A stretch of 64,000 bases of DNA from Salinivirgaceae bacterium. Lineage in GTDB: Bacteria > Bacteroidota > Bacteroidia > Bacteroidales > SZUA-534. Made by a program: the position numbers and the translations under genes. The DNA lies in NCBI GenBank assembly GCA_030620515.1, contig JAUXEM010000001.1, positions 2,779 to 66,778 on the forward strand, in the 5' to 3' direction. Positions 43,756-60,664 of this stretch are shown piece after piece. Under the pieces are notes generated by a model. That model was not told where the DNA came from and ran no database searches. It saw only the letters and a program-made list of their open reading frames with translations. Within the stretch, counting starts at the first letter, position 1. The number at the start of each line of letters is the position of its first letter.

Positions 43756-45420
43756 TTATGGACAAACTCTAGTTAGTAATTCCAGTTTGCCATTTAAAAC
43801 AACAGCATCAAGTTGCATGTTTTTTGCGCTTTTTACAGCATCTTCAATAGTATGAACTATTGGTTCTCCCTTAATATTGAACGAGGTGTTTATTAGGGCT
43901 TTAACATTGTGGTTTTCATCTAAGTATGTTAGTAAATCGTAAATAAAAGGATTCTCCTCTTTATTAAAAATAGTTTGAATTCGGGCTGTGCCGTTAATAT
44001 GAACAGCGCCAATAAGTTCTTTTTGTTTTTCAGGTAATATTAAAAAGTCGAGTAGCATATATTTCGACAAATGGTGAATGCTATTTTTACCAGTAAAATA
44101 TTTAGCATTTTTTTCAAGCATAATTGGAGCAACTGGTCTGTACCATTCTCTTTTTTTATGTTGCATGCTTAATTTTTGAGCAAGTTTCTTGTCAGATGCT
44201 AAGCTTAAAATACTTCTGTTTCCTAACGCCCTAGGTCCAATTTCAGCCTGATTATTACTTACACCAATTACTTTTTTAGCTTTTAGTAAATCAGCAACTT
44301 TCTTTATTGTTTCTTGGCTGTGTTTTGCATTGTAATGTTCTATTCCCCAATTATTCAGATAAGGAGAGCTTATTTTAATGTTATTGTTTTGTTTCCATTC
44401 AAAAAAGGCGGCTGCCCCTAGAGCTAATCCTGAGTCGTTGCAGCAAGGCGGAATAAAAACATTGGCAAATATATCCGATTCAATAATTTTATTATTTAGC
44501 AAGATGTTTAGAGCCGAACCACCTGAATAGTATAAGTATTCTGCTTTAATTGCTTTTTGTAATTCTGATATTTTTTTGAATGATTCACGGATAAAAATAT
44601 GTTGAATTGTTGTTGCAACATCCTGAATAAAAGAGGCCTTCTGATCAATATGTTTAATAGATATATTGAAGTGTTTTTTTGCCGATTCAAAAAAGGCTTT
44701 CTTATTTTTCCAACAGGTTTCAAAAAAAGAATTTTGACGTAACCATTTTTCAATAGATTCCGAATAGGTTCCAAACGATGCAAATCCCATAAATTTTCCA
44801 GGCACACTATTTAAATCTTTTTGTTTGGCATTAACTATGCTAAAAACTAAAGCATTTGCATTATATAAAGACGAAAGCCATTTTAAATCCCAGTTATATT
44901 CAACCAAAGTAAGTTCGTGGTTATAGTAATGCCATGCTGAAAAATTACTTTTGCTTGCACCACCATCAAAGTGAATTAATAGGCTGTTTTCTTTATAATC
45001 TCCAAAAAAGGGAAGGCAACTTCCAATATGTGCAAGTTCATGATTAAGGGCATAAGCCTTAATATTCTTATCCAACAGCCATAGATTTCCTTCCTCAATA
45101 TTTGCTTTGAGTTTTTTTTGTATAGGAGCTTCAAATCTAATATTGCCTTCTGTGTTTATAAAGCTTCTACCTAAAACATTGTCTATAAAAATGTAATTGC
45201 AAGGTTCATTTAGTAAGTTCTCACTTTTTAATAAGCTATAAAGCATAAAACCTAATTCAGCACTTTGTTTTTTTCTATTTAACCGTTCAATATGAATACT
45301 CCTTATAACTGCTCCATTTTGCATAATGGCAATACCATGATCGTGTGATATAGTGGGGATATCGCTTGTGTTAATATCTTGAATCCCATAAACTCCAATT
45401 GTTAGATACTTAGAAGTCAT
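43756..45420 (-). CDS. Carbamoyltransferase (NodU/CmcH family)
   Basis: 554 aa; N-terminal ASKHA-like HDHGIAI.., central ELAHIGS and YYSGGSALN, and C-terminal carbamoyltransferase domain RPVAPIM, NTSFNIKGEPIV. Confidence 0.85.
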   Translation of the reverse strand: MTSKYLTIGVYGIQDINTSDIPTISHDHGIAIMQNGAVIRSIHIERLNRKKQSAELGFMLYSLLKSENLLNEPCNYIFIDNVLGRSFINTEGNIRFEAPIQKKLKANIEEGNLWLLDKNIKAYALNHELAHIGSCLPFFGDYKENSLLIHFDGGASKSNFSAWHYYNHELTLVEYNWDLKWLSSLYNANALVFSIVNAKQKDLNSVPGKFMGFASFGTYSESIEKWLRQNSFFETCWKNKKAFFESAKKHFNISIKHIDQKASFIQDVATTIQHIFIRESFKKISELQKAIKAEYLYYSGGSALNILLNNKIIESDIFANVFIPPCCNDSGLALGAAAFFEWKQNNNIKISSPYLNNWGIEHYNAKHSQETIKKVADLLKAKKVIGVSNNQAEIGPRALGNRSILSLASDKKLAQKLSMQHKKREWYRPVAPIMLEKNAKYFTGKNSIHHLSKYMLLDFLILPEKQKELIGAVHINGTARIQTIFNKEENPFIYDLLTYLDENHNVKALINTSFNIKGEPIVHTIEDAVKSAKNMQLDAVVLNGKLELLTRVCP

Positions 45421-45555: not shown

Positions 45556-46398
45556 ATGGTAACAAATGAGGATGTTCAGCGATTTATTACCGCAATCAAA
45601 ATGGCTTCCACTTATGATTTTAGCGATTATTCTGAAAGATCGTTTAAAAGACGAGTTGAGAAGCTTTTGATTGATAATCATATGGATATTAATCAGTTGT
45701 CGCTTAAGATTTCAAAGGACAAGTTTTTTCTAGAGAAGGTTGTTAGGGATATTACAGTTAATACAACAGAGCTATTTCGAGACTCTGATATGTGGATTAC
45801 CTTAAAACACCAGATTTTACCAAAGTTAAAAAAGAATAAGTCAATTTTTATTTGGCATGCAGGATGTTCAAGTGGGCAGGAGATATATTCCATGCTTATT
45901 TTATTACATGAACTTGGCATGTTCGAGCAGGCAAAAGTTTTTGCTACCGATATTAATTCTGAAATGCTTGAGTCTTCTAAAGCAGGAGTTTATAAATATC
46001 GATTTAACTTAGGTTATTTAGACAACTTTGACAAAGTAATTAAAGAGAACCCTTTAAACTTTGAAGAAACAAAAGATGTTCCATACGAAAAATACTTTGA
46101 TATTGATAAGGTAAAAGATACCATTAAGATGAAGGAATTTTTGCGTGAAAAGGTTGTTTTTAGAAAACATGATTTAGTTAATGATGGAAATATTTTCTAC
46201 TCAAAATTTGATTTAGTATTGTGTAGAAACGTAATTATTTACTTTAATAATAAATTGCAAAATCACGTTATCGAACTGTTTAACAATAGTTTGTATAGAG
46301 ATGGATACCTGGTACTAGGGGCTCATGAAAGTATTTTAGGACCTGTGTCAAATAACTTTGATCGTACCAAAGGGTTTTATAAAAAGAAGCAGTTTTAA
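45556..46398 (+). CDS. cheR: CheR-type protein-glutamate O-methyltransferase
   Basis: 280 aa; N-terminal CheR_N helices (FSDYSERSFKRRVEKLL, TELFRD), SAM site IWHAGCSSGQEIYSMLILL, and DLVLCRNVIIYFN. Confidence 0.85.
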   Translation: MVTNEDVQRFITAIKMASTYDFSDYSERSFKRRVEKLLIDNHMDINQLSLKISKDKFFLEKVVRDITVNTTELFRDSDMWITLKHQILPKLKKNKSIFIWHAGCSSGQEIYSMLILLHELGMFEQAKVFATDINSEMLESSKAGVYKYRFNLGYLDNFDKVIKENPLNFEETKDVPYEKYFDIDKVKDTIKMKEFLREKVVFRKHDLVNDGNIFYSKFDLVLCRNVIIYFNNKLQNHVIELFNNSLYRDGYLVLGAHESILGPVSNNFDRTKGFYKKKQF

Positions 46399-46412
46399 AG
46401 CATATATTTAGA

Positions 46413-47240
46413 ATGATAAATAATTTAGGCATAGTAGATACAAAAAAGATAATTGCGGCGATTCATGAATCGTTTGGCCTTGATTTGAAGGATTATAATC
46501 TTACAACTTTAAAAAAACGTTTTTCGCATCTCTTATTCTATTTTAATGCCCCAATTATTGATGATTTTATTTTAGACATTAAAAGCAATAATTTTAATAA
46601 AGACGAGTTTATTGATCAGTTAATGATTGATAGCACTGAGCTATTTAGAGATCCTTCTTTTTGGAGAGAATTACGAGAGAATTATTTGCCAGACATTACA
46701 TCAACAGTAGGATCAAAAATTTGGTTAGCAGGAGTATCATCTGGTGAGGAAATTTATTCTTTAATGATTTTACTTAGAGAATCAGGATTAAGAGATAAAA
46801 TAAGAGTAGAAGTTTCATGTCCAAGTACAAAAAGAATAGAAAGGATTAGAAATGGTGGCTTTTACGACATGAAGAAAATGGAGGTTGGTGATGCTAATTA
46901 TGTTAGATTTGCAGGAGATGGAGACCTTAAAAAGCACTATACCGTTGAGGGAACAAAAGCAATTATGGATACTACTTTGTTAAATGGTGTAGAGTTTAAT
47001 ACCATGAATGTTTCTCAAGAAAATCCGTCTAAAGGATATAGAATAATTGTTTTTAGAAATATTCTTATTCAATATAATTTGCCACTATATGAGAAAGTAG
47101 TGAGAAAATTAACCCAGAATATTACTGTGGGAGGACATTTAATGATCGGAAATAAAGAAACGCTTGAGCATTCTGAAGTGGGCAAAAGAATGCAGTTAGT
47201 GAATGATATTGAGAAAATTTATAGAAAAAGATTTGACTAA
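46413..47240 (+). CDS. Divergent second CheR-like methyltransferase
   Basis: 275 aa; TELFRDPSFW and IWLAGVSSGEEIYSLMILL are retained. The post-I motif is altered to RIIVFRNILIQYN (canonical CRNVxIYF). Confidence 0.75.
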   Translation: MINNLGIVDTKKIIAAIHESFGLDLKDYNLTTLKKRFSHLLFYFNAPIIDDFILDIKSNNFNKDEFIDQLMIDSTELFRDPSFWRELRENYLPDITSTVGSKIWLAGVSSGEEIYSLMILLRESGLRDKIRVEVSCPSTKRIERIRNGGFYDMKKMEVGDANYVRFAGDGDLKKHYTVEGTKAIMDTTLLNGVEFNTMNVSQENPSKGYRIIVFRNILIQYNLPLYEKVVRKLTQNITVGGHLMIGNKETLEHSEVGKRMQLVNDIEKIYRKRFD

Positions 47241-47241
47241 T

Positions 47242-47805
47242 ATGGACTATAAGGCTGTTATAATAGGAGGTTCTGCAGGAAGCTTTCAGGTAATTACTAA
47301 GATAATTGCCTCGTTGCCTGAGAATTATTCTTTGCCTGTTATTTTATGTCTTCATAGGCTAAAGCATGTTAGATCCGGATTTGTTGAAGCCTTATCCATA
47401 AAATCTAAAATGCCTATTCTTGAGCCAAACGATAAAGATCCTATAAAAGCAGGTAAAATTTATTTAGCACCTGCAAATTATCATATGTATGTTGAGCTTG
47501 GAAATAGATTCACTTTATCAACAGAGGATGTAGTTAATCATTCTCGACCATCTATTGATTTATCTTTTTCTTCGGCATCATACAATTATAAACGTAAATT
47601 AGTAGGAATTATATTAAGTGGAGCAAACAAAGATGGAGCACTAGGGCTTAAAGCAGTTAATGATTCTGGTGGGTTAACAATTGTTCAAGACCCAAGCGAC
47701 TGTCAGGTTCCAACCATGACTCAAGCTGCAATAAGTGCCACAGAAGTAGATCATGTTTATAATACAAGAAAAATTATAGAATTTTTACTAAATTTAGATA
47801 GTTAA
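47242..47805 (+). CDS. cheB: CheB-type methylesterase catalytic domain, no receiver domain
   Basis: The ATG at 47242 lies 1 nt after the CheR' stop and gives MDYKAVIIGGSAGSFQV. Residues matching the Ser/His/Asp triad contexts are present (GGSAGS, CLHRLKH, NKDGALG..GGLTIVQDP). 187 aa, too short for a REC domain. Confidence 0.85.
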   Translation: MDYKAVIIGGSAGSFQVITKIIASLPENYSLPVILCLHRLKHVRSGFVEALSIKSKMPILEPNDKDPIKAGKIYLAPANYHMYVELGNRFTLSTEDVVNHSRPSIDLSFSSASYNYKRKLVGIILSGANKDGALGLKAVNDSGGLTIVQDPSDCQVPTMTQAAISATEVDHVYNTRKIIEFLLNLDS

Positions 47806-47930
47806 TATGAATCATTCATGGCAAATTGCTTAAAACACATAACCATGATTAATAATGTACTACAGAATTGGAAAGAAAAATTGGCGGAGTGGATATTCCA
47901 TCTGGCAATTGAAAATTATAATATAAACAG

Positions 47931-48695
47931 ATGAATGAGTTTCGTTTACATAAGCGCAGATTACTAATTAATTTATCAATATTTTTGATACTAATTGTAG
48001 TTTCATTATTTATGATAATTGATGGAGCCTCTGCATTTAAGCAGCAATGGAGGATAATTGCAATTATGTGTATTTTATTAATTGAGATACCTGTTGTAGT
48101 AAGTTCTGTATTAATATCACTTAAAGTTATTAACTCAATAATAAAAGAAGCGAATTCAAATAAAGTACTCCAAGAGACTGAATTAAATAATTATGAAAAA
48201 GAAGTAGAGGAAAAAGTAAAAGAAGCAGATGATTTAACATTTAACTTAAATAGATTAATTGCTGATGTTGGGAAACATGAGGACTGGGACAAATTTGGCT
48301 TAGGCTTATTAAATGGTATTAGTAAGCAATTGGAGATTATAACAGGCTTAGTTTATAAACACAGTAAAGAAGAGGGATTATATAAGTCGACAGCTACCTA
48401 CGCCTATTATTCAGAACAAAAACCCTCAGATTTTAAAGAAGGAGAGGGGTTAGCGGGGCAAGTAGTAAAAGACAATAAAGCTATTTTTCTTTCCGATATT
48501 CCAGAAGGTTATGTTGAGGTAGTTTCTGGCTTGGGGAATAATAAACCTAGTCATTTAGTAATTTTGCCAATATATAAGAATAACAATGTAGTTGGTATTG
48601 TAGAATTAGCATCATTTAAATCATTTGGAGACAGCTTTGCCAGACGAATTAAAGATATTTCAGAAAGCTTTGGTAATTTAGCACCAGTAGTATAA
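47931..48695 (+). CDS. Two-TM membrane protein with C-terminal GAF domain
   Basis: 254 aa; TM helices LLINLSIFLILIVVSLFMII and IIAIMCILLIEIPVVVSSVLISL. The GAF-like region GEGLAGQVVKDNKAIFLSDIP..VILPIYKNNNVVGIVELASF is paralogous to the GAF of the next gene. Confidence 0.75.
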   Translation: MNEFRLHKRRLLINLSIFLILIVVSLFMIIDGASAFKQQWRIIAIMCILLIEIPVVVSSVLISLKVINSIIKEANSNKVLQETELNNYEKEVEEKVKEADDLTFNLNRLIADVGKHEDWDKFGLGLLNGISKQLEIITGLVYKHSKEEGLYKSTATYAYYSEQKPSDFKEGEGLAGQVVKDNKAIFLSDIPEGYVEVVSGLGNNKPSHLVILPIYKNNNVVGIVELASFKSFGDSFARRIKDISESFGNLAPVV

Positions 48696-48714
48696 GAATA
48701 AACTAAAGAGATAG

Positions 48715-51339
48715 ATGAATAAAATTGCAGAAAAGATTGCCAATTTAGTAATATTCAGGGTTAATAACCGAGTAAATTACACTCTAGGATTATTAATATT
48801 TGGATTATTGATTCCATTTTTAAGTTGGATAATTGGTTTTATTTTTACTGACATCTCAATTTCCTTAGCCGGATTATGGGAAATGCATAAGGCAGCCCCT
48901 GTTTATTTTATTGTTGATTTATCCCCATTAATTCTTGGAGGTGTAGGTTATATTGTCACAATATCGCATCAAACAACTGAAAATGAAATGGGTAACATTA
49001 TTGAAGAGAAGGATAATGTTATAAATATGAATGCTCGTTTTGCTAAAAAAATTGGCAATGGAGATCTTAGTGTTTCTGACGAAGATATAGATGACAATGA
49101 TATTCTTGGACAATCTCTTAAAATAATGAGAGAAAATTTATCAAGAACCAATGAAAATGAGAAACAACAAAATTGGATAGCAAAAGGTAAAGATATTGTA
49201 TCGGATATTTTGCGTATGCAGAATGACCTAGATACCCTGTCATACACAACTCTTGTTGAGTTAATAAAATATATAAATGTTTTACAAGGAGCATTTTACA
49301 TTTACGATAGTGAAGAAAAAAAACTTAGCAATACTGCTACATTTGCTTATAATAGACAAAAGTTTTTAACTCAGGAATTCGCTATAGGAGAAGGCTTGGT
49401 TGGACAATGTGCTTATGAAATGGCAACTATTTTTAGACGTGAAATACCTAAAGAGTATGTTACAATCTCTTCAGGAATTATGGGTGATAAGAAGCCCTCG
49501 TCATTGTTACTAGTACCGTTAATAACCGATGACAAGCTTCAAGGAGTCATGGAATTTGCATCTCTTGATAATGATATTGATGAACTATCTATTAGATTCT
49601 TAGAAGAACTAAGTGACATTATTGCGCGAACCATTTTTAATCTTAAAGTAAACACACGCACAGAAAAACTTTTGAAAGATGCTCAAGAAATGACAAATGA
49701 GCTGCAGGAAAATGAGGAAGAGCTTAGGCAGAATGCCGAAGAAATGCGTGCAACACATGAGGAATTAGAAAAATCCAATAGTAATCTTGGAACTCAAATA
49801 AAAGAAGTTGAAAATGCCCAAAAACGATTGCACTCTTTGCTTGAAAATGCATCAGAGATAATTTCCATTTACGATGAAGAGATGAAGCTAAAATACATTA
49901 GTCCATCTGTTTTAAACATATATGGTTATTCTGTTGAAGAAATGATGGATGGTAAGGATTTAGATAGACTAACAGCAAAAGGAGTAAAAGAGTTCTCTGA
50001 AATGTTTGTTAACTTAAGGGAAAATCCTGGTCATGCAGAAACTATTCAGTATACCTATATGCGTAAGGATGGTCAGAAAATATTCATTGAGTCTATTGGA
50101 CGAAACCTGCTCAATGATCAAGCAATAGGTGGAATTCTTGTAAACTCACAAGACATAACAGAACGAAAACGTGCAGAGAAAGAGGAACGCATGAAAAGTA
50201 AAATGCAATCTTTGTCTGAGAATTCCCCCGATATGATTATTAGATTAAGTCCAACGGGTCAATTCTTTTATGCCAACCCAATTGTAAAAATATTTACAGG
50301 CGTTGATAATAACGAGATTATAAAAAGTAGACTTACCGAGGTTGAGTTTAAAAAAGAGATTAAGGATTTCTTTATTGAATCTATAAAAACGGTTAAATCG
50401 TCATTGCAAAAAACAAATTCTGAAACTACCTTTCCTACAAATTTTGGCGATAGAATTATGCAGGTAAATGCTATACCAGAATTTAGTGATGATAAAGATT
50501 TGGAAACTATTTTATTTGTTGCTCATGATATTACTGAGCAAAAAAAGATTGAACAAGTAGTTAAAGAGAAGAATAGGGCTGTTGCTGAAAGTATTAATTA
50601 TGCCCAAAGAATTCAAACATCAATTTTACCAAACACGAAATTTGTTCAAGAGTTTCTGCCAAAATCATTTATTTATTATAAACCTCGAGATGTTGTAAGT
50701 GGAGACTTTCCATGGTTTTTTAAGAAGGGAGATGATATTTTTATTGCAGCTGTTGATTGTACGGGACATGGGGTTCCAGGTGCATTATTGTCATTTGTTG
50801 GTTACTTTATTTTGAATAATGTAGTAGATCATTACCATGATATAGATGCAGGAGTAATTTTAGACAAGCTTCATGAGGGAGTAAGAAAAACTTTAAAACA
50901 AGATAGAATTGACTCCGATGCAAGAGATGGTATGGATATTGCTCTTTGTAAGATTAATTTGAAAACTAATTTGTTGGAATACTCAGGAGCACATCGTCCA
51001 TTATATCTACTGCGTAACAATGAGTTGAGTGAATATAAGGGCAATCGAAAAGCAATTGGTGGAATACCACATGGTAAAAAACCAGAAAAAGATTTCGAAA
51101 ATCACTCAATTAATTTGGAAAATGGCGATAAAGTCTTTTTCTTTTCCGATGGTTTACCAGATCAAATTGGTGGACCAGATAGAAGAAAATATCAAGCCAA
51201 AAGAATTAGAGAAGCTATTACTCAAAATCCAGACTTTATGATGGAGGATTATGAAGGTTATTTTTCTGATGATTTTGAACAATGGAAAGGTGATATTAAG
51301 CAAATTGATGATGTATTATTAATAGGTATAGAATTTTAA
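48715..51339 (+). CDS. Membrane GAF - coiled coil - PAS - PAS - PP2C (SpoIIE/SiaA-like) serine/threonine phosphatase
   Basis: 874 aa; two TM helices, GAF (GEGLVGQCAYEMATIF..LVPLITDDKLQGVMEFASL), an E/Q-rich coiled coil, two PAS units (..SIYDEEMKLKYISPSV.., ..MIIRLSPTGQFFYANP..), and a SpoIIE domain (YAQRIQTSILP, VSGDFPWFF, AAVDCTGHGVPGALLS, SDGLPDQ). Confidence 0.85.
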   Translation: MNKIAEKIANLVIFRVNNRVNYTLGLLIFGLLIPFLSWIIGFIFTDISISLAGLWEMHKAAPVYFIVDLSPLILGGVGYIVTISHQTTENEMGNIIEEKDNVINMNARFAKKIGNGDLSVSDEDIDDNDILGQSLKIMRENLSRTNENEKQQNWIAKGKDIVSDILRMQNDLDTLSYTTLVELIKYINVLQGAFYIYDSEEKKLSNTATFAYNRQKFLTQEFAIGEGLVGQCAYEMATIFRREIPKEYVTISSGIMGDKKPSSLLLVPLITDDKLQGVMEFASLDNDIDELSIRFLEELSDIIARTIFNLKVNTRTEKLLKDAQEMTNELQENEEELRQNAEEMRATHEELEKSNSNLGTQIKEVENAQKRLHSLLENASEIISIYDEEMKLKYISPSVLNIYGYSVEEMMDGKDLDRLTAKGVKEFSEMFVNLRENPGHAETIQYTYMRKDGQKIFIESIGRNLLNDQAIGGILVNSQDITERKRAEKEERMKSKMQSLSENSPDMIIRLSPTGQFFYANPIVKIFTGVDNNEIIKSRLTEVEFKKEIKDFFIESIKTVKSSLQKTNSETTFPTNFGDRIMQVNAIPEFSDDKDLETILFVAHDITEQKKIEQVVKEKNRAVAESINYAQRIQTSILPNTKFVQEFLPKSFIYYKPRDVVSGDFPWFFKKGDDIFIAAVDCTGHGVPGALLSFVGYFILNNVVDHYHDIDAGVILDKLHEGVRKTLKQDRIDSDARDGMDIALCKINLKTNLLEYSGAHRPLYLLRNNELSEYKGNRKAIGGIPHGKKPEKDFENHSINLENGDKVFFFSDGLPDQIGGPDRRKYQAKRIREAITQNPDFMMEDYEGYFSDDFEQWKGDIKQIDDVLLIGIEF

Positions 51340-51356
51340 TTATAAAAAAACCAATT

Positions 51357-51941
51357 ATGGCTGGGAAAGGTGCAGATACAAAAGATTTTCTGGATTTCGT
51401 TTATAGCTTTCATGAATCAATGGAACAGCATAAAGTTCTTTTGGTATATGAGGGAGAAATAACCCACCAGATAACTAAAGCTTTTACTTCTTTAACAGAA
51501 AATAATATGGAGGTTGAAGAAGAGGCTCACTCTACACAAAAGAAAGTTTTTCATGTTATGGTAGAATGTTTACAGAATGTTGGCAAACATGCAGAAAACT
51601 ATCGTAAAAATGAAAGTAGAAAAGATGGTAAAGGAGCATTTTTACTAAGCAGAACTGAAGAAGACTACTTTATTACAACTGGTAATAAAGTAAACTCTGA
51701 AAAGGTTTCTGAGATGGTAGAGGTTTTAGAAAAAATTAATAGTCTCGATAGAGATGGATTGAAAAAGCTATATAAATTACAAATAAGGGAAGGTCGTCTT
51801 TCTAATAAAGGAGGAGCTGGTCTTGGCTTTATTGATATTGCTAAGAAAACGGGGAATTCATTAAACTATAAGTTTATACCTATTAATAGTGATTTTTCTT
51901 TTTTTGTGTTGAGTTGTAAAATTTCAAGAAATAATAATTAA
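51357..51941 (+). CDS. SiaB-like (DUF6272/HATPase-like) partner-switch protein kinase
   Basis: 194 aa; HKVLLVYEGEITHQITKAF, VMVECLQNVGKHA (N-box-like), GGAGLGFIDIAKKTG (G2-box-like). Sits between the PP2C and DUF1987 genes, as in siaABC. Confidence 0.7.
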   Translation: MAGKGADTKDFLDFVYSFHESMEQHKVLLVYEGEITHQITKAFTSLTENNMEVEEEAHSTQKKVFHVMVECLQNVGKHAENYRKNESRKDGKGAFLLSRTEEDYFITTGNKVNSEKVSEMVEVLEKINSLDRDGLKKLYKLQIREGRLSNKGGAGLGFIDIAKKTGNSLNYKFIPINSDFSFFVLSCKISRNNN

Positions 51942-51951
51942 AAACTTAATT

Positions 51952-52335
51952 ATGGAGGTTATAAAAATAGTAGGAACCGATGATACTCCTAGTGTAACAT
52001 TTGATGCTGCTAATGAGATTTTCGAAGTTTCAGGTCGTTCGTTACCGGAAGATGTTGCTGCTTTCTACGAGCCAATTTTAGAATGGCTTGAAAGATATTC
52101 AGAAGAAGCTATTGCAAAAACAGTATTTAATTTTAAGCTTGTTTACTTTAATACTGCTAGCTCAAAAATGCTATTAGATATTCTTTTGAAGCTTGAGGAA
52201 ATGTATGAGTCTGGCAAGGACGTATTAGTTCGCTGGCATTTTCCTGAAGACGATGAGGATATGGAAGAAGCAGGAGAAGAATATGCTGATATAGTAGAAG
52301 TTCCGTTTGAGCAAATTAGCTATCCAATGGATTAA
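51952..52335 (+). CDS. DUF1987 (SiaC-like) partner-switch phosphoprotein
   Basis: 127 aa; TPSVTFDAANEIFEVSGRSLPEDVAAFYEPILEWL and FKLVYFNTASSKMLLDIL are the DUF1987 hallmarks. Confidence 0.8.
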   Translation: MEVIKIVGTDDTPSVTFDAANEIFEVSGRSLPEDVAAFYEPILEWLERYSEEAIAKTVFNFKLVYFNTASSKMLLDILLKLEEMYESGKDVLVRWHFPEDDEDMEEAGEEYADIVEVPFEQISYPMD

Positions 52336-52388
52336 AGCTTTGTATGTGGTAAAGTTATACTACATAATGTAAATTAATATCCGATAGG

Positions 52389-55300
52389 ATGAGTGAAGAG
52401 ATTTTAAAAGCGTTGATGCGACTGTTTGCTATTATAGCAAAACAAGATGGTGGTGTTGAAGATAATGAAATTGACTTTGTTGAAAATTTCTTGACCTCTC
52501 AATTAAGCTCTGATTTTGTTGAAGAATACATGGCATTGTTTTATAAGCATGCTGGTATTGAAAGTCGTGAAGAGAATAGAGCTAATAGAGAAAATGGTGA
52601 AATTAAACTTACATCTGTTAAGGATTCTGTTAAGATACTTGGTATTTGTAAAAAGATTAATAAAACCCTTACACAGGAGCAAAAAGTTGTTGTGCTTGTT
52701 CGTTTATTTGAATTAGTTGCTGCTGACAGAAAGTTTTCGGAACAAAGAATGGCTATTATTAACACAGTAGCCGAAGTTTTTAATATCTCTACCGAAGAAC
52801 TCGAAAGTATAAATACATTCGTTATTAAGGAACAGTATATTGATCTTGATATTTCAAGCATTCTTTTAGTTAATGATAAACATATTGAATGCGAGAATGC
52901 AAAGCATATTAAAATTGAAGAACTTGATAAGGATGTCTATATTCTAAAGATAATAAGTGTTGAACTTTATTTTCTTCGATATACAGGTAACCAAGTATTA
53001 TTATTAAATGGTTTACCAGTAAGAACAAGTAATATATATCTGTTTGCACATGGTAGTGCTATTCGTTTTCCAAAAGGCAAGCCAGTTTATTATAGCGATA
53101 TAGTTTCCAAATTTATGAGCGATATTACCTCAGCTCATATTACCTATAATGTAAACGATGTAGAGTTCAAATTTCCAAATGGTACAATTGGCTTACGCGA
53201 CATTAACTTGTCGGAAGAACAAGGACGTCTTATTGGAATAATGGGGGCTAGTGGTGCCGGAAAAACCACTTTATTAAATGTTTTAACAGGTATTGAAACT
53301 CCCTCTCAAGGTGAAGTATTAATAAATGGCATTAACCTTCATACAGAAAAGGAAAAAATGGAAGGGGTAATTGGATATATCCCTCAAGACGATTTATTAA
53401 TTGAGGAACTTACCGTTTACCAGAATCTATATTTTAATGCTAAACTTTGTTTTAAAAACTTTAGTGAAGATGAATTGCACAAAAAAGTTACTTCTACTCT
53501 TGAAAGCCTTGGTTTGCTCGACAGAAAAGATCTTAAAGTGGGATCGCCACTCAACAAAACAATTAGTGGAGGACAACGTAAGCGTCTTAATATTGCATTA
53601 GAATTAATTCGAGAACCACCGATTCTATTTGTTGATGAACCAACCTCTGGACTTTCATCACGCGATTCTGAAAATGTAATGGATTTACTACGAGAGCTTG
53701 CCATGAAAGGAAAGCTTATTTTTGTAGTAATTCATCAACCATCATCGGAAATATACAAAATGTTCGACCGAATGGTTATACTCGATACTGGTGGTTATTT
53801 AATTTACTATGGTAATCCAGTTGAAGCAGTAACTTATTTTAAAAAAATAGATGCCCAAATTAATAGCAATCAAGGCGAGTGTCAAACATGCGGAAATGTT
53901 AATCCAGAGTTAATATTTAATATTATTGATGCGCAGGTTGTTGATGAATTTGGTCGTTACACGAATAAGAGAAAGATTATTCCAACAGAATGGGAACGAA
54001 AATATAAAGAAAAGCACGAGCTAGAAAAACATAAAGACCAAGAAAAGGAACCTCCAAAATCATTAAATATACCCTCTTGGTTTAAGCAAATGCTTATTTA
54101 TTTTAAGCGAGACTCACTTGCAAAAATAAGTAACCGTCAGTATATATTACTTAATATACTTGAAGCTCCGCTACTAGGGTTTATTTTAGCATTTCTAATC
54201 AGATACATTGCAGATCCGAATTCTAAAATATACATATTCAGAGAAAATGAAAATATCCCTGTGTATATTTTTATGAGTATGATTGTGGCTATGTTCCTTG
54301 GACTAATGGTTAGTGGTGAAGAGATTTTTAAAGACAGGAAAATTCTTAAACGAGAAGCCTTTTTAAATTTAAGCCGCTCAAGTTACCTTACTTCCAAAAT
54401 ATCTATTCTTATAATTTTATCTGCAATTCAAGCATTACTTTTTGTTCTTGTAGGTAATCTTATTTTAGACATTAGGGGTTTATGGTTTGAATATTGGTGG
54501 GCTCTTTTTACAATAGCAACATTCTCTAATGTTTTAGGCTTAAACTTATCGTCTGCATTTAACTCAGCAGTTACTATTTATATTATGATACCGCTTGTAA
54601 TGATACCACAAATGGCATTAGGAGGGGCTATGTTTAGTTTTGATAAATTAAATCGTGCTGTTGGTAGCATTGAAGGTGTACCCCCTGTTTGTGAATTCAT
54701 GGCTACTCGTTGGGTGTACGAAGGGTTAATGGTTAGGCAATTTAAGGATAATAAATTCGAAAAAGACTACTTTGACCTTGAGCAGAAGATGAGCATTGCT
54801 GATTTTAAAAATGTATATTATTTGCCAGAACTTAATGATCGTATTGACTATTGTATTCGTGCTATTAATACCGAAAATGACACCATAAAGATACAGATAA
54901 GCGAGAGACTAGCTCTGCTTAAAAATGAAATAAGCAAAGAATTAGTGCGTGTGCCTAAAATAAAATACGAACATATTAATGATTTAACCATAGAAAAATT
55001 TACTCCTGAAATAGGATTGGCTACTTCAGAATATGTAAAGAAACTGGAGATATTTTACGCAACACTTTTCTCAGAAGCAAATAAAAAGAAGCAAGCTACT
55101 ATTGGATATCTAGATGAGAATTATCCAGGTGTTTACCTTGCAAAAAGACAAGCATATCACAACGAAGCTGCTGGCGATATTGTAAAGAAAATATATGAAA
55201 AGAATAAAATAATTGCGTATAAAGATAGACTAATTCAACAAGTTGACCCTATTTATGAGATTCCTTGGGTTAAACATTCTTTTAATTTTAGGGCGCAGTT

Positions 55301-55445
55301 TTACTCACCTACAAAACATTTTGCAGGTAAAAATATTGATACTTTCTGGTTTAACATGTGGGTAGTTTGGGTAATGTCTATTGTGGGCTTTGTTGCTTTA
55401 TATTATGATTGGTTGAAGAAGATTCTGAATATATTTCAAAAATGA
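52389..55445 (+). CDS. TerB-like N-terminal domain fused to ABC-G-type ATPase and ABC-2 permease (half transporter)
   Basis: 1018 aa. Residues 1-150 form two TerB-like helical repeats (LMRLFAIIAKQDGGVEDNEIDFV..; LVRLFELVAADRKFSEQRMAII). Walker A GASGAGKTT, signature ISGGQRKRLNIA, Walker B ILFVDEPTSGL, then about 6 TM helices with a large insertion before the last TM. Confidence 0.85.
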   Translation: MSEEILKALMRLFAIIAKQDGGVEDNEIDFVENFLTSQLSSDFVEEYMALFYKHAGIESREENRANRENGEIKLTSVKDSVKILGICKKINKTLTQEQKVVVLVRLFELVAADRKFSEQRMAIINTVAEVFNISTEELESINTFVIKEQYIDLDISSILLVNDKHIECENAKHIKIEELDKDVYILKIISVELYFLRYTGNQVLLLNGLPVRTSNIYLFAHGSAIRFPKGKPVYYSDIVSKFMSDITSAHITYNVNDVEFKFPNGTIGLRDINLSEEQGRLIGIMGASGAGKTTLLNVLTGIETPSQGEVLINGINLHTEKEKMEGVIGYIPQDDLLIEELTVYQNLYFNAKLCFKNFSEDELHKKVTSTLESLGLLDRKDLKVGSPLNKTISGGQRKRLNIALELIREPPILFVDEPTSGLSSRDSENVMDLLRELAMKGKLIFVVIHQPSSEIYKMFDRMVILDTGGYLIYYGNPVEAVTYFKKIDAQINSNQGECQTCGNVNPELIFNIIDAQVVDEFGRYTNKRKIIPTEWERKYKEKHELEKHKDQEKEPPKSLNIPSWFKQMLIYFKRDSLAKISNRQYILLNILEAPLLGFILAFLIRYIADPNSKIYIFRENENIPVYIFMSMIVAMFLGLMVSGEEIFKDRKILKREAFLNLSRSSYLTSKISILIILSAIQALLFVLVGNLILDIRGLWFEYWWALFTIATFSNVLGLNLSSAFNSAVTIYIMIPLVMIPQMALGGAMFSFDKLNRAVGSIEGVPPVCEFMATRWVYEGLMVRQFKDNKFEKDYFDLEQKMSIADFKNVYYLPELNDRIDYCIRAINTENDTIKIQISERLALLKNEISKELVRVPKIKYEHINDLTIEKFTPEIGLATSEYVKKLEIFYATLFSEANKKKQATIGYLDENYPGVYLAKRQAYHNEAAGDIVKKIYEKNKIIAYKDRLIQQVDPIYEIPWVKHSFNFRAQFYSPTKHFAGKNIDTFWFNMWVVWVMSIVGFVALYYDWLKKILNIFQK

Positions 55446-55506
55446 TACACCGAATACCTTTTTTTTGTTAATAAAAAAGGCTTATTTTTATAAAAAATTA
55501 ATACTC

Positions 55507-56427
55507 ATGAAGAGAAATTGGTTAAAAATAGTATTTGCAGCTTTTATTGTAACATTATTGTTACAATTTGGATGTAAAGGAGATGGCAGTAAGAGTATTT
55601 CAAACGATATTGAAATACCTGATTCAATATTTAATGATAAACCCCTTATGATTTCAAAGGAAGCCATGGAAGATATTATAGATAATATATCTTCTCCAGT
55701 AGAAATGGCTGCTTTGCTTAAATCTTCGGGAGTTCCATTTTCACAAAAAATGCTTGCTTCAACAAGTAGAATAGATGATTTGAATACGAACTTTAAACAA
55801 GCTTTAAACCTTGGTGTGTATGGTTGTGATTTGGGCTATCTTAATATGTATGAAAAAACAGGGTCAGTAATTACTAATATGACAGCAATTAAAACACTGT
55901 CAAATGAACTAAGGATAGGGCAATTTTTTGATTTTAGTACCATAAAAAGGCTAGCAACAAATAATGAGAATCTTGACTCGTTAATGTATATATCGGTTTC
56001 AAGTTTCAATAATATGGACGAATATTTGAGGCAATCGAACAGAGGAAATATTAGTTCGCTTATAGTAACTGGAATGTGGATTGAAGGTATGTATTTAGCG
56101 GCTATGGTTGCAAAAGATGCTCCTAGAGCTGATATTGTTGAGCGTATTGCAGATCAGAAGCTTGTTTTAAACGATCTTATTTTAATTTTAAAGAATTATC
56201 AAAATGATCCTAGTTTTGTTGATTTAATAGCACAAATTGAAATCGTAAAAAAGGAATATGAAGGTGTGAAAATAACTTATGAAATGGGCGAACCTGAAGC
56301 AAAAGAGGTAGATGGAATGCTTATAATTATTCAAAACGACAAGCAGCATATTGATATGTCAGACGAGACCTTAACTAGTATTATTGGTGCAATTATTGAT
56401 GTACGTACTAAAATAATTAATTTGTAA
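55507..56427 (+). CDS. Lipoprotein of unknown function (helical)
   Basis: The ORF track start at 55465 is TTG; the ATG at 55507 gives MKRNWLKIVFAAFIVTLLLQFGC (lipobox). No family recognised. Confidence 0.65.
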   Translation: MKRNWLKIVFAAFIVTLLLQFGCKGDGSKSISNDIEIPDSIFNDKPLMISKEAMEDIIDNISSPVEMAALLKSSGVPFSQKMLASTSRIDDLNTNFKQALNLGVYGCDLGYLNMYEKTGSVITNMTAIKTLSNELRIGQFFDFSTIKRLATNNENLDSLMYISVSSFNNMDEYLRQSNRGNISSLIVTGMWIEGMYLAAMVAKDAPRADIVERIADQKLVLNDLILILKNYQNDPSFVDLIAQIEIVKKEYEGVKITYEMGEPEAKEVDGMLIIIQNDKQHIDMSDETLTSIIGAIIDVRTKIINL

Positions 56428-56428
56428 G

Positions 56429-56860
56429 ATGAAGAGAATTTTGAAAATAGTATTCGTTTTATTATTTCTTTCGAGTATTGGTAATACTTATGCTCAGAGT
56501 GATGAATTAGTTAATGTTTGTGCTTTGGGTATTGGTAATGCTACTTATTTAAAAGATTATAAGGTTAAGCTTTCTGCTAGTAGTGTATCGCCTCCAACTG
56601 CAAAGTTTAATGTTATTCTTAATAAAGGTACCTTGTATAAATTTACTGTATGTAATGCCGAAGGATATTCTGGTGAAGCTGTATTAACTTTAAGGGAGAA
56701 CGTAAAGGTTCTAGGATCAAATTTAAAGGCAGATGGAAGCTTTTTGACAGGACTTGGCTTCCAGTGCAACAAAACTGGTATGTATAGTATTAATATATCG
56801 TTTAAGGGTGGTAAAGCGGGTGCAGCAGTGGCTATACTTTCTTATGTAAATATGAAATAA
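56429..56860 (+). CDS. Small secreted beta-rich protein of unknown function
   Basis: 143 aa; signal peptide MKRILKIVFVLLFLSSIGNTYAQ. The ATG lies 1 nt after the upstream stop. Confidence 0.6.
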   Translation: MKRILKIVFVLLFLSSIGNTYAQSDELVNVCALGIGNATYLKDYKVKLSASSVSPPTAKFNVILNKGTLYKFTVCNAEGYSGEAVLTLRENVKVLGSNLKADGSFLTGLGFQCNKTGMYSINISFKGGKAGAAVAILSYVNMK

Positions 56861-59800: not shown

Positions 59801-60664
59801 AATTGCCATTGGAGCATGTTCGAAGATAGAACGGAATTTTTCCTCGCTTTTTCTTAATTCATCCTTTGTGTATTCAAATGCAGTAATGTCGTGTATAATA
59901 CCAAATGAAAGCACTGGGTTACATTTACTGTCATAATTAGTGTAGCACTTTTGAATTACGTGTTTTACTGCTCCATTTTGTAATTTAAGTCTATGAGCTA
60001 TTTCATACCCCGACTTGCTAATAATTGCATTTTTAAATGTAAGTTCTACTTCTTCTTTATCATCAGCATGCACAAACAATAAAAAGGACTTAAATGATGG
60101 ACTTATTTTGGTTCTATCTGAAATGTTAAGTATTTTATAGAATTCATCGGACCAGGTATGGGCTTTTGTTTCATGATTTTCAGTCCATTGCCCAATATTA
60201 GCAATACTTTGCGATTCTTTTAATTGTTGTTTCTTTTCAATTAATTCTTGACGTTGAAATTGTATATTTGTTGTATTACTAATTGAAAATAGAAAACTAT
60301 CTGCACCTGTCTTTTTTAGTTTTAAACTGTAGCTTTCTTTTTTAGAAGTTAAGTTAAGTTTTAGCAAACCATCTTTTTTGTACCCTTTTGCTTGTACTAG
60401 CAAATTTGACGAAAAGTTATCGAGAAAACTAAATGCTTCTGTAGCAGGCATCGGTAGCTCTTTGCTAGTTATTCCTGATAATTCAAAGAATGAATTGTTG
60501 GCGGTAGATAGTAAATAACTATCCTGATTTTTGCCATTTGATTCAATCTCAATAATTCCACTTGCATCTATGGCATCAGTAAAAAAACTTTTATAATTAG
60601 ATAGTTGATCTTTTAATTCAGCTATCTCATATTCCGGGCTATTTTTCGATTGTTTCTCTTTCAT
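56861..60664 (-). CDS. Multi-PAS (about 9-10 PAS/PAC units) protein without recognisable output domain
   Basis: 1267 aa; recurrent PAS_3-type motifs (IGQWTENHETKAHTWSDEF, LGYWEYDVKKD, VGYWNYDYITKQ, IGVWDYNIDTD) and PAC ends (..DISAEKKA, ..DISKRKEAE, ..DITELK). No HisKA/HATPase, GGDEF, EAL, HTH or REC motifs seen. Confidence 0.85.
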   Translation of the reverse strand: MKEKQSKNSPEYEIAELKDQLSNYKSFFTDAIDASGIIEIESNGKNQDSYLLSTANNSFFELSGITSKELPMPATEAFSFLDNFSSNLLVQAKGYKKDGLLKLNLTSKKESYSLKLKKTGADSFLFSISNTTNIQFQRQELIEKKQQLKESQSIANIGQWTENHETKAHTWSDEFYKILNISDRTKISPSFKSFLLFVHADDKEEVELTFKNAIISKSGYEIAHRLKLQNGAVKHVIQKCYTNYDSKCNPVLSFGIIHDITAFEYTKDELRKSEEKFRSIFEHAPMAIVLMNKLLQPEMLNNHFCKILGYSKEEIMQQNMQTLTFAEDFETNSLLYNRLFKGKINSFTISKRYLKKDTTKVWVKVTVSAIQNKQGLPNKAIAMVQDISAEKKANEELLNSEYKYRTLIENANDGIGLFDLNMKPIVYNTTLYEMLGYNLSEFLGLNHKQFDLFHAEDKDSAKNAIEKVKKNKKIKIEKRLINKDGQYKHYSISYIPVVHEEKPAILIFRRDISKRKEAEFQNEEYRLFLETIMENLPVSLFAKTTPDLRYLYWNKAMELMTNISNEDAIGCTDFELFQSKALAKELNNEDIKVLKNKKRLEKEHVFTNIIGQAKQVKTIKTLHNPSTGNPIILGISVDITELKNIEKQVEQSDQLLKEAQKITKLGYWEYDVKKDLLFDNVENRHIFGTEKLQYFLNTNQLLEKVLPTDHNILNTAFKECVEQKKTGEGIIRIMVNNKIKHISINYKPVLNNAEEVIKLRGTSLDITRIRESEIALRESENRSKQAEHIAKVGYWNYDYITKQTQFSDEVAIILELKDTRNNIHFNNLFESVHPNDKLATAVVFHKSKGSAKPFDFDFRIITPKNIIKYIRAKGTFVKNQEGQLIRSIGTFQDITELKLKQMELEKYSNHLQEIQKLSRTGYIETELNTTSITFSDSLIGILETQTPLKTTECYNKFILEEDRLTVNKTLELTIKNEDSHNIQYNLKLENGQIKTVNEICKIIKQTNPVRHFITRIIQDITYIKEKEFALTKSELQLDQAISTNIIGVWDYNIDTDTYAFSKKAKSILNITNENENFRLKSIIDIIHPDDKYSVKKIFSKCYQQKENYTLSYRITPFNKTEIKYIKDTGRFYKNKNGQWIISGTISDISDIRETKMQLDLAHEIIETLNEHSTTPIAVVQDNAIVYSNTIWKTKITTKLKFTEKEFLFELINNSSVKKALAANNEGLKSLADIDLKTAKANKIKADLILKAITIKNKPALLINIILK

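Follow-up and report, generated by a model that had tools for sequence, protein, structure and literature searches.

The CheR1, CheR′ and CheB genes in the 64-kb stretch of DNA analysed here (the window) are the first three of the ten genes of a strictly conserved operon, and hence are not orphan. We put at roughly 0.6 the probability that their three products together provide a partner-switching pathway with its covalent-modification input, and are not a part of chemotaxis. In the mechanism proposed here, CheR1 would methylate glutamates on the dimeric helix of a phosphatase with the organization TM-GAF-helix-PAS-PAS-PP2C and, in the 22 loci with a receptor X, would also methylate the identical motif on X. 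CheB would demethylate the helix, and would also deamidate Gln 336 in the 20 orthologues encoding it. The methylation level would bias the helix and so set the activity of PP2C, which would dephosphorylate SiaC-P against the SiaB kinase. Unphosphorylated SiaC would bind and regulate the product of a neighbouring gene, for which the TerB-ABC exporter is the most likely candidate.

The conserved operon

The operon comprises ten co-directional genes (positions 45556-56860, all on the + strand) with intergenic gaps of 1-125 nt, in the order CheR1, CheR′, CheB, sGAF, PP2C, SiaB-like, SiaC-like, TerB-ABC, 320-aa lipoprotein (u320) and 143-aa secreted protein (u143), and it is kept in about 80 Bacteroidales species. 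The CheR1-CheR′-CheB triad together with sGAF stands in fixed order in 69/69 related loci with enough upstream flank, from several families, and the SiaB-SiaC-ABC-u320-u143 block is present in 62/62 related loci with enough downstream flank. Since their order is kept in all 69 loci, CheR1, CheR′ and CheB are real genes and not chance ORFs; the term 'orphan', which an earlier note on this DNA applied to the triad, is refuted by its place at the head of the operon. The 80-locus set was collected using the helix motif of the phosphatase itself as the search pattern, and the apparent conservation of that motif is therefore inflated. A sigma-70 promoter/terminator scan of the operon gave 59 promoter-like sites versus 59.1 expected from shuffles; Bacteroidota promoters differ from the sigma-70 model.

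The phosphatase gene is followed by a gene for a SiaB-like protein kinase (DUF6272; 51357-51941), which matches Pfam DUF6272 at 3e-41, scores 174.5 bits against the NCBIfam model SiaB_fam_kinase (cut-off 85) and matches P. aeruginosa SiaB (6KKO_A) at 7.6e-16. The next gene encodes a SiaC-like phosphoprotein (DUF1987; 51952-52335), the predicted switch protein, with matches of 1.3e-41 to Pfam SiaC and 4.9e-17 to 6KKO_C. Its FNTAS segment is aligned to LNT(68)SS, and YFNTASSK is invariant in eight diverse loci; T68 of P. aeruginosa SiaC is the target of SiaB (PMC8457831). The SiaB-like and SiaC-like proteins, like the PP2C phosphatase, retain the motifs for catalysis or phospho-acceptance, and the parts of the partner switch are thus intact. 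An ABC transporter with a TerB domain, an NBD and an ABC-2 membrane domain (52389-55445; Pfam TerB, ABC_tran and ABC2_membrane) is encoded directly after SiaC in 62/62 assessable loci, and also in loci without CheR/CheB, and from this adjacency we guess that it could be the output of the pathway. The operon ends with two further conserved genes, one for a 320-aa predicted lipoprotein with the lipobox LQFGC (55465-56427) and one for a 143-aa secreted protein with a signal-peptide-like N-terminus (56429-56860). The former has no family match in Pfam or NCBIfam, and no family match was found for the latter either.

The modification enzymes

Judged by its sequence, CheR1 (45556-46398; 280 aa) is a canonical CheR-type glutamate O-methyltransferase with all catalytic residues, and presumably the active writer. 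Both domains of the CheR architecture are recognized (Pfam CheR 2.8e-40, CheR_N 3e-4), and residues 10-268 align with B. subtilis CheR (5FTW), which is matched at 5.6e-29. The protein carries IWHAGCSSGQEIYS and CRNVIIYFN, so that the statement in the earlier note that canonical motifs are kept is borne out. The equivalents of Salmonella R98, D154 and Y235, whose roles are cited in PMC5907407, lie in ELFRD, FATDIN and CRNVIIYF and are invariant in 71/71 family members, with overall identity across loci ranging from 52 to 89%.

CheB (47242-47805) is a stand-alone methylesterase/deamidase domain of 187 aa. Its ATG at 47242 lies 1 nt past the stop codon of CheR′ (TAA, 47238-47240), and the single-base separation noted earlier is thus confirmed. 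The match to CheB_methylest (5.8e-49) spans the whole protein (residues 6-181, or 19-194 of the 200-aa ORF that was scanned). The Pfam scan gave no N-terminal receiver domain in the 187-aa protein, and the orthologues measure 180-198 aa. The Ser-His-Asp triad is intact: in an alignment with Salmonella CheB (1CHD), S164 falls on Ser11 (in GGSAGS), H190 on the His of CLHR and D286 on the Asp of RPSID; identity across loci is 63-84%. The description of CheB as an esterase domain only is accordingly correct, but 'constitutive eraser' is too strong. In E. coli adaptation, CheB activity depends on receptor conformation, and we infer that a dependence of this kind could give feedback without a receiver. 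With no receiver in CheB, such feedback would need conformation-dependent availability of the substrate.

CheR1 and CheB both match chemotaxis families, and they might form an ordinary chemotaxis adaptation pair acting on conventional MCPs encoded elsewhere, with the position in the PP2C operon being incidental. We consider this very improbable. No MCP signalling domain, CheA or CheW is present among the 47 ORFs of the window, and tblastn with MCP, CheA, CheW and CheD found nothing in either the window (64 kb) or the related loci (1.75 Mb). At two loci, L094 and L096, genuine Che clusters with MCP, CheW and CheA do occur near relatives of the PP2C operon; in L096, however, the chemotaxis CheR and REC-CheB are separate from the CheR and receiver-less CheB that the operon itself possesses. 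An incidental position is also difficult to reconcile with the gene order being fixed in every assessable locus of several families and with the 1-nt gap between CheR′ and CheB, and the receiver domain that would couple CheB to CheA is missing. In a rough tree the operon CheRs cluster apart from chemotaxis CheRs, and neither CheR1 nor CheR′ groups with the ordinary chemotaxis enzymes.

The second CheR gene, CheR′ (46413-47240; 275 aa, Pfam CheR 3e-20), encodes a degenerate paralogue that is probably a non-catalytic adaptor or regulator. Its fold is that of a CheR: the AF2 model has a pLDDT of 93.9 and a pTM of 0.91, and the top Foldseek matches are all CheR structures, with a TM-score of 0.77-0.82 to 5FTW. 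CheR′ carries IWLAGVSSGEEIYS and VFRNILIQYN. The earlier note took the latter for an altered post-I motif; the sequence is indeed there, but the segment corresponds to the CRNVxIYF strand. In CheR′ it is VSCPS that aligns with the true post-I motif, which reads ATDID in the Bacillus subtilis enzyme and ASDID in that of Salmonella, and the SAM-ribose Asp (Salmonella D154) is a Cys. Across the CheR′ family this position is occupied by Ser (32), Cys (23), Val (9) and others including Thr and Ile, and it is never Asp in window-type two-CheR loci, with or without X. The Y235 equivalent is a Gln in CheR′ (Tyr in 54 and Gln in 22 family members), and the catalytic residues are therefore not all kept. 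This Tyr-to-Gln change in the IQY segment is limited to one subclade. Retained are the equivalent of R98, the K-R-R of helix 2, the R-N of CRN, and the Gly and Glu of motif I, the residues preceding that Gly being variable. The loss of the SAM-ribose Asp makes CheR′ probably a pseudo-enzyme, a possibility that had been raised before and is now supported by damage greater than was seen at that time. Most likely, CheR′ is a catalytically dead paralogue that would still bind the helix, as an adaptor, a competitor or a reader.

Alternatively, CheR′ could be catalytically active, binding SAM in an unusual way and methylating a target of its own, for example with CheR1 modifying X and CheR′ the phosphatase, which would give the operon two writers. 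We regard this as unlikely, though several observations are in its favour. CheR′ is under purifying selection with a confidently predicted, complete CheR fold, and part of the active site is retained as listed above. Moreover, both CheR copies are canonical in the more distant locus L092, and the canonical enzymes of the single-CheR loci L003 and L096 are placed on the CheR′ side of the rough tree. Against two writers, the acidic SAM-ribose residue is absent and its position variable in the CheR′ of all window-type two-CheR loci, and the residues before the motif I Gly are not conserved. CheR′ also evolves fast (33-63% identity across loci; homologues at 33-44% identity are located within the equivalent operon), with a substitution rate well above that of CheR1.

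The candidate methyl-accepting helix

The earlier note saw no substrate receptor near the triad. About 1.9 kb downstream, however, the PP2C sensor contains a candidate methyl-accepting helix, for which RsbM/RsbK offers a precedent (PMC4574943). This sensor phosphatase (48715-51339; 874 aa) has the organization TM-GAF-signalling helix-PAS-PAS-PP2C and is SiaA/RsbU-like (Pfam GAF_2, PAS twice and SpoIIE). Its phosphatase domain matches NCBIfam SiaA at 5.8e-48, the PP2C metal-site motifs DCTGHG, DGMD, FSDG and DDVL are invariant, and no HisKA or HATPase was found by Pfam.

The candidate helix, MTNELQENEEELRQNAEEMRATHEELE, follows the GAF domain at aa 326-352 (49690-49770), with its core EELRQNAEEMRAT at 49717-49755. 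In the post-GAF stretch NEEELRQNAEEMRATHEEL, Glu-Glu pairs recur every seven residues (328/9, 335/6, 342/3 and 349/50), which is the sole heptad Glu-Glu helix run in the 64-kb window. The EEMRAT of the helix conforms to the receptor methylation consensus Glu-Glu-X-X-Ala-Ser/Thr, while the residue preceding the first Glu pair is a misfit to the longer MCP consensus. LRQNAEEMRAT presents eleven consecutive invariant residues among PP2C proteins that are only 45-64% identical overall, and the helix is the third most conserved 15-aa stretch of the phosphatase. At position 336, 63 orthologues have E and 20 have Q. In 22 loci a gene between CheR1 and CheR′ encodes receptor X, an MCP-like protein (sensor-HAMP-GAF-helix-PAS) that bears the identical motif. 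When the 67-aa helix alone was used as the query of a homology search, only two short proteins were returned. The consensus helix also occurs in thousands of Bacteroidota and other sensors, some of them giant proteins in which the GAF-helix unit is repeated up to nine times. Taken as a reading of these sequences, the post-GAF helix of the phosphatase is likely the substrate of CheR1 and CheB.

The presence of CheR/CheB was compared with that of the motif among loci. PP2C proteins with a perfect motif have CheB adjacent in 73/73 cases, in a locus set that was retrieved by the motif. L087 and L094 have degenerate motifs and no CheR/CheB within 8-10 kb upstream of the phosphatase; L090 also combines a degenerate motif with no CheR/CheB beside the phosphatase, on a contig that ends inside X 1.4 kb upstream. 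Other loci do not follow this pattern. L096 has an intact CheB and a CheR beside a PP2C with a degenerate motif, and no perfect motif elsewhere in the locus. The same is found in L088, where the contig may stop short of CheR1; a truncated CheB and a lost CheR1 were considered for this locus and rejected, as an in-frame nucleophile motif is found upstream, with TTG as the start codon, and X is cut by the start of the contig. In L089 and L092 the perfect motif is found in the adjacent receptor X, and the PP2C motif of L092 is degenerate despite CheR/CheB. Outside the window-type clade the comparison stands at 6/8 versus 0/3 (approximately p = 0.06), with data points that are not phylogenetically independent. 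This comparative trend is suggestive, and would back the helix as the methylation substrate.

It is conceivable, if decidedly unlikely, that the helix is purely a structural signalling helix of the GAF family, and that CheR and CheB are relics or act by binding instead of catalysis. The GAF-coiled-coil family to which the motif belongs is very large (11,082 representative clusters, with many multi-repeat proteins), and no GAF-helix fused to CheR or CheB occurs among its best 150 representatives, so the conservation of the motif could be structural or signalling alone. L096, L088 and L092, with their enzymes beside degenerate PP2C motifs, fit the same interpretation. However, few proteins of the operon are conserved as well as CheR1 and CheB, and both keep all their catalytic residues, which argues for catalysis. 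The perfect motif in the adjacent receptor X of L089 and L092, as well as the precedent of RsbK (PMC4574943), also speaks for a helix that is modified.

The enzymes might instead modify another operon protein, namely the membrane GAF protein, the acidic tail of SiaC, SiaB or the TerB domain of the ABC transporter, but we find this improbable. The membrane GAF protein, sGAF (47931-48695; GAF_2 1.4e-08), has a GAF domain joined by a variable acidic linker to two transmembrane helices, and lacks a signalling helix; its GAF domain is 32% identical to that of the PP2C protein (E=1e-18). sGAF always lies directly downstream of CheB, between CheB and PP2C in 69/69 assessable loci, and evolves as fast as CheR′ (26-49% identity), which could mean co-evolution. 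Its acidic linker, however, is unconserved, and sGAF is also found without CheR/CheB (L094); it was rejected as the main substrate since the acidic part is not conserved. The acidic tail of SiaC, DEDMEEAGEEY, has conserved Glu-Glu pairs near the C-terminus. It was likewise rejected as the main substrate, as its conservation is equal in L087 and L090, which have no CheR/CheB. Neither the sGAF linker nor the SiaC tail resembles a heptad-spaced methylation helix, and the sole experimentally known non-MCP target of a CheR is a post-GAF helix (PMC4574943).

Significance and comparison with known systems

In chemotaxis, the textbook memory device is the reversible methylation of glutamates. To our knowledge, essentially one case has been studied outside chemoreceptors, RsbK/RsbM, which has no eraser, and we know of no explanation for the role of CheR/CheB in Bacteroidota. 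The operon offers a full writer/eraser pair and a conserved pseudo-writer tied to a PP2C/SiaB/SiaC switch, together with a concrete candidate substrate, six glutamates on one helix. It is present in the cultured Perlabentimonas gracilis, and Salinivirga cyanobacteriivorans has a CheR1 orthologue. If the modification-input reading is true, methylation adaptation would be a portable module pluggable into phosphatase-based signalling, and a very large GAF-helix protein family would contain possible methyl acceptors. As a more speculative extension, which we hold only tentatively and consider doubtful, the GAF heptad helix (QEEE[LM]RQN[ALM]EE[LM]xATQEE) might be a general methyl-accepting module, with the receiver-less CheB and the CheR of non-chemotactic bacteria as its erasers and writers, and CheR′ might be a 'dead' CheR, the first of its kind, that reads or protects the methylation state. 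On this view, phosphatases, kinases and receptors lacking an output would widely share an adaptation layer of reversible glutamate methylation, with enzymes either stand-alone or fused.

By analogy, the closest precedent for this operon is RsbK/RsbM of Bacillus cereus, in which the CheR homologue RsbM methylates the post-GAF S-helix of RsbK (PMC4574943, where Chen et al. 2012 Environ Microbiol 14:2788 is cited for the RsbK/RsbM/RsbY sigma-B module). In common are a CheR-family gene beside a non-MCP sensor, a GAF domain followed by a dimeric signalling helix, and a PP2C with a partner switch at the end of the pathway. The GAF and helix of the window align at E=1e-19 with those of an RsbK-like kinase of the type CHASE3-GAF-HK-REC, whose gene is flanked by CheR and a receiver-less CheB, the helix being in register with EELQVQGEELRVSNEEL and the EE heptads matched; this alignment was made with the RsbK-like kinase, and RsbK itself is likened by description. 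The differences are clear. RsbK is a hybrid histidine kinase (HisKA-HATPase-REC) signalling to a separate REC-PP2C, RsbY, whereas the window helix is fused via two PAS domains to PP2C. According to its description, RsbM is an orphan writer lacking an esterase, whereas the window operon adds a receiver-less CheB and a degenerate second CheR. The switch proteins are SiaB/SiaC and not RsbW/RsbV, and the output is not a sigma factor.

The lower part of the pathway resembles the SiaA/SiaB/SiaC/SiaD system of P. aeruginosa (PMC8457831) in its SiaA-like PP2C, its SiaB-family kinase and its DUF1987 SiaC with the N-T-S phospho-site region. In contrast, no SiaD or any GGDEF protein is found in the operon or in the 64-kb window, the neighbour of SiaC being TerB-ABC; the input of the window phosphatase is GAF-helix-PAS-PAS and not the SiaA input region, and the Sia system is described without methylation enzymes (PMC8457831) while the window operon has CheR/CheB.

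Chemotaxis adaptation in E. coli and Salmonella (MCP, CheR and CheB-REC) shares with the operon both enzyme families and their catalytic residues. The heptad Glu-Glu pairs on a dimeric helix match Glu-Glu-X-X-Ala-Ser/Thr, and some orthologues have Gln at one site, recalling receptors in which deamidation is required. Different from chemotaxis, the window has no MCP signalling domain, CheA, CheW or CheB receiver, a phosphatase and not a kinase would be controlled, and one CheR is degenerate.

A similar GAF and EE-heptad helix adjoining CheR and receiver-less CheB is found in plasmid clusters of Rhizobiales (e.g. CP041206.1), with the layout RsbK-like CHASE3-GAF-HK-REC / CheR / receiver-less CheB / REC-HK. 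Among plasmid homologues, those closest to the window CheB (about 42% identity) and CheR1 (33%) are encoded in these clusters. The clusters differ in their histidine-kinase output, CHASE3 sensor and single CheR, and genes for SiaB/SiaC or ABC are absent from them. Nothing relevant was found in the literature on CheB-CheR fusions, or on CheR with SiaC/DUF1987 or partner switching. One CheB-CheR fusion kinase, WP_013124660.1 of Salinibacter ruber pSR84 (n=1), combines a receiver-less CheB, a CheR, a coiled coil with NEELxxx heptads and PAS. It differs from the window operon in having all parts in one polypeptide, a kinase output and no GAF domain; by analogy, its make-up suggests the same logic of writer, eraser and helix as in the operon.

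Operon organization and conservation

CheR1 (45556–46398, 280 aa; Pfam CheR, 2.8e-40), the divergent CheR′ (46413–47240, 275 aa; Pfam CheR, 3e-20) and CheB (ATG at 47242, end at 47805, 187 aa) are encoded in the same direction on the + strand, according to the listed ORFs, Pfam scans and inspection of the DNA sequence itself. The stop codon of CheR′ lies at 47238–47240 and the ATG of CheB follows one base later. The CheB_methylest domain (5.8e-49) fills the whole of the 187-residue CheB and the Pfam scan gave no receiver domain in it, in agreement with the earlier note, which had described an esterase domain only, a single base behind CheR′; the peptide strings quoted there for CheR1 and CheR′ are likewise all present in the sequence.

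The description of the triad as an orphan does not hold, since seven further genes of the same orientation adjoin it downstream at intervals of 1–125 nt, and the same operon is found in relatives. They encode a two-TM GAF protein (sGAF, 47931–48695), an 874-aa TM-GAF-coiled coil-PAS-PAS-SpoIIE/PP2C protein (48715–51339) with a phosphatase domain that hits NCBIfam SiaA (5.8e-48), a SiaB-like DUF6272 kinase (51357–51941) scoring above the NCBIfam cut-off for SiaB-family kinases, a SiaC-like DUF1987 protein (51952–52335), a TerB-ABC-ABC2 transporter (52389–55445), a predicted lipoprotein (55465–56427) and a small secreted protein (56429–56860). Across the 64-kb window there is no gene for CheA, CheW or a protein with an MCP signalling domain.

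Upstream of CheR1 lies a divergent carbamoyltransferase gene (43756–45420, − strand), which holds this position in about 20 related loci as well, so synteny reaches past the operon. Convergent with the operon end, 56861–60664 (−) encodes a 1267-aa protein with about seven PAS domains and no recognisable output domain. Elsewhere in the window, scattered defence-like or mobile-like genes occupy 1728–7758 and 20059–23933 (an AAA_14/DUF4143 ATPase, an HEPN-like NTase_sub_bind protein, an ATPase_2, a GmrSD_N endonuclease and a PDDEXK_2 transposase-family protein). Genes for the flavoprotein and iron-sulfur subunits of a fumarate reductase/succinate dehydrogenase lie at 13874–17024, the only place where GC is near 0.40, against about 0.31–0.34 in the rest of the window.

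Homologues of CheR′ are detectable in 82 cases, mainly in Salinivirgaceae and other Bacteroidales MAGs, and the same operon is present on contigs whose CheR′ homologues are 44%, 40% and 33% identical; the most distant of these three (L003) has a single CheR and lacks the ABC transporter. A genome scan, whose search pattern was the helix motif described below so that the sample holds motif-bearing orthologues only, added 80 loci from distinct species, including Perlabentimonas gracilis and one complete chromosome; CheR1, CheR′, CheB and the small GAF protein occur together wherever the upstream flank suffices (69/69 loci), and SiaB, SiaC, the ABC transporter and both exported proteins wherever the downstream flank does (62/62). 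Two related loci carry tandem SiaB-like (DUF6272) genes rather than one (L091:3805–4981 and L096:12618–13764), and in another (L089) the TerB domain is an ORF of its own, apart from the ABC transporter. A different wiring of Che proteins to PP2C is seen on Persicobacter psychrovividus plasmid pPP4 (L098, 1125–7804), where CheW, REC, CheA, a SpoIIE-family phosphatase, REC-CheB and CheR form one cluster.

Catalytic residues of CheR1, CheR′ and CheB

When 71 CheR1-type and 76 CheR′-type sequences were aligned to the CheR of B. subtilis (5FTW), no canonical position was lost in CheR1, in line with the earlier note on its motifs; the equivalents of Salmonella R98, D154 and Y235, the roles of which are cited in PMC5907407, are among those kept. 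Several conserved features survive in CheR′: the residue corresponding to R98, the basic helix-2 K-R-R, the motif I Gly and Glu-Glu, and R-N within CRN. Its ribose-binding Asp is replaced by Cys in the window; across the family the site varies (Ser, Cys, Val, Thr or others), and no CheR′ from a window-type two-CheR locus has Asp there, whether the receptor-like protein X described below is present or absent. At the position equivalent to Tyr235, the window's subclade has Gln and the other sequences have Tyr. The AF2 model (pLDDT 93.9; Foldseek TM 0.77–0.82 to 5FTW) predicts that CheR′ is a well-folded CheR despite the lost Asp.

These data strengthen the suggestion that CheR′ is a pseudo-enzyme, and we regard a non-catalytic CheR′ as likely. 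The competing view, that CheR′ keeps all catalytic residues and groups with ordinary chemotaxis CheRs, is contradicted on the first point by the absent Asp and on the second by a rough neighbour-joining tree, in which all operon CheRs, together with one Rhizobium CheR, stand apart from the chemotaxis CheRs. Identity to the window copy is 33–63% for CheR′ versus 52–89% for CheR1, so CheR′ evolves much faster. In the same tree, the two canonical CheRs of L092 and the single canonical CheRs of L003 and L096 were placed on the CheR′ side, which tentatively suggests that CheR was duplicated and that one of the copies then ceased to be catalytic.

The Ser, His and Asp of the CheB catalytic triad are all in place when aligned with Salmonella CheB (1CHD). 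In one related locus (L088:2813–3390), the public annotation of CheB begins from an ATG within the gene and so omits the GGSAGS nucleophile motif, which lies in the same frame further upstream, preceded by a TTG; short, seemingly 'truncated' CheBs in related loci may be annotation artefacts.

A candidate methyl-accepting helix

The earlier note saw no visible substrate receptor. A candidate is nonetheless present in the PP2C protein of the operon, whose helix between GAF and PAS, MTNELQENEEELRQNAEEMRATHEELEKSN (aa 326–355), carries Glu-Glu pairs at 328/9, 335/6, 342/3 and 349/50, a seven-residue spacing and the sole such run in the window. The pairs would lie on exposed b/c positions, with Leu/Met 337, 344 and 351 and Ala/Met/Leu 341 forming the core. 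The classical receptor methylation consensus is Glu-Glu-X-X-Ala-Ser/Thr, which EEMRAT of this helix matches. LRQNAEEMRAT is invariant in four PP2C proteins that are just 45–64% identical overall, and among 15-residue windows in 83 orthologues the stretch 333–347 ranks third for conservation, behind the PP2C metal-site motif and the PAS-PAS linker only. Position 336 is Glu in 63 orthologues and Gln in 20, a pattern also seen in receptors whose sites arise by CheB deamidation. We propose, with a probability of roughly 0.6, that this post-GAF helix is the substrate of CheR/CheB.

In 22 loci a gene for X, a receptor-like protein of about 790 aa ordered TM-sensor-TM-HAMP-GAF-helix-PAS-PAS with no output domain, is inserted between CheR1 and CheR′, and its helix carries the same motif as the PP2C helix, EEMRQNMEEMQATQEEM, in 22/22. 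Examples of X are L061:5767–8145 and 21 other loci, L087:5489–7837, L089:2221–4926 and L092:2075–4261; its sensor is MCP-type (4HB_MCP or dCache in some copies), and its gene lies between CheR1 and CheR′ or upstream of both.

Representative homologues of the GAF-helix module number 11,082; many carry the motif, in as many as seven copies, and among the top 150 there is no fusion to CheR or CheB. The module is repeated in some proteins (P0096, P0119, P0232 and others): within the 2405 aa of P0119 there are 7 motifs and 9 GAF stretches, and P0232 has six motif copies with an exact 70-residue period.

PP2C-type relatives with a deviating helix serve as natural controls. No CheR/CheB occurs within 8–10 kb upstream of the phosphatase in L087 and L094, and in L090 X directly abuts the phosphatase, the contig ending inside X; every motif copy in these three loci is degenerate. 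L089 and L092 combine CheR-CheR-CheB with a degenerate PP2C helix, yet the adjacent X has a perfect motif, and L091 has CheB with a perfect PP2C motif. In L096 the CheR is canonical and the receiver-less CheB intact, but the helix is only weak (QLIQNAEDLIKTQEELKET). In L088, CheB read from the corrected start codon is intact, CheR′ is degenerate, and so are the helices of X and of PP2C; the contig begins inside X, so CheR1 is not scorable there. CheB is adjacent to 73/73 perfect-motif and 4/7 imperfect-motif PP2C proteins, and outside the window-type clade a perfect motif occurs somewhere in 6/8 loci with CheB versus 0/3 without, a trend with two possible counterexamples that, in statistics ignoring shared ancestry, agrees weakly with the helix as substrate.

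Proposed switch and comparison with known systems

In P. aeruginosa, SiaB phosphorylates T68 of SiaC, SiaA removes the phosphate, and SiaC binds its target, the diguanylate cyclase SiaD, only when unphosphorylated; DUF1987 proteins are proposed to modulate adjacent proteins (PMC8457831). FNTAS of the window SiaC aligns opposite LNT68SS of the P. aeruginosa protein, and YFNTASSK is invariant in eight diverse loci. The window operon has no cyclase and the TerB-ABC transporter is a conserved neighbour of SiaC, including in loci without CheR/CheB, so by adjacency the exporter is the likely SiaC target.

We propose that CheR1 would methylate the exposed Glu/Gln pairs of the PP2C post-GAF helix, and of X where present, and that CheB would demethylate or deamidate the same pairs. 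The modification state would bias helix packing and, through it, PP2C activity; PP2C and SiaB would then set SiaC phosphorylation and thereby control the exporter. A non-catalytic CheR′ would probably bind this helix too, in the role of adaptor, competitor or reader. With a receiver-less CheB, any adaptation would need conformation-dependent substrate availability, which is known for E. coli receptors.

On plasmids, the window CheB has its closest homologues in the receiver-less CheBs of Rhizobiales clusters of the form CHASE3-GAF-helix-HK-REC / CheR / CheB / REC-HK. The window GAF and helix can be aligned to one such kinase, whose helix is TEELQVQGEELRVSNEELEEQ, across 231 residues (E=1e-19); the EE heptads fall in register, and the CheR of that cluster is 33% identical to CheR1. 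A Salinibacter ruber CheB-CheR fusion kinase has NEELMSMNEELQAKNEELQTSKEQLQSVNEEL ahead of its PAS domains. Judged from these sequences, three unrelated architectures thus share a heptad EE helix beside CheR and a receiver-less CheB.

A precedent is Bacillus cereus RsbK (CHASE3-HAMP-GAF-S-helix-HK-REC), whose S-helix is methylated by the CheR-like RsbM, described as an orphan writer, with the result that sigma-B is repressed; 127 RsbK-like kinases were reported from 10 phyla (PMC4574943; PMC12848376). In the literature we found no description of CheR/CheB joined to a GAF-PAS-PP2C/SiaB/SiaC operon, nor of a conserved, catalytically degenerate CheR. The window operon would use the chemistry of chemotaxis adaptation and work like RsbK/RsbM joined to a Sia-type switch. 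It differs from a chemosensory pathway in lacking MCP, CheA, CheW and a receiver on CheB, from the RsbK kinase in lacking an HK, and from SiaABCD in lacking SiaD.
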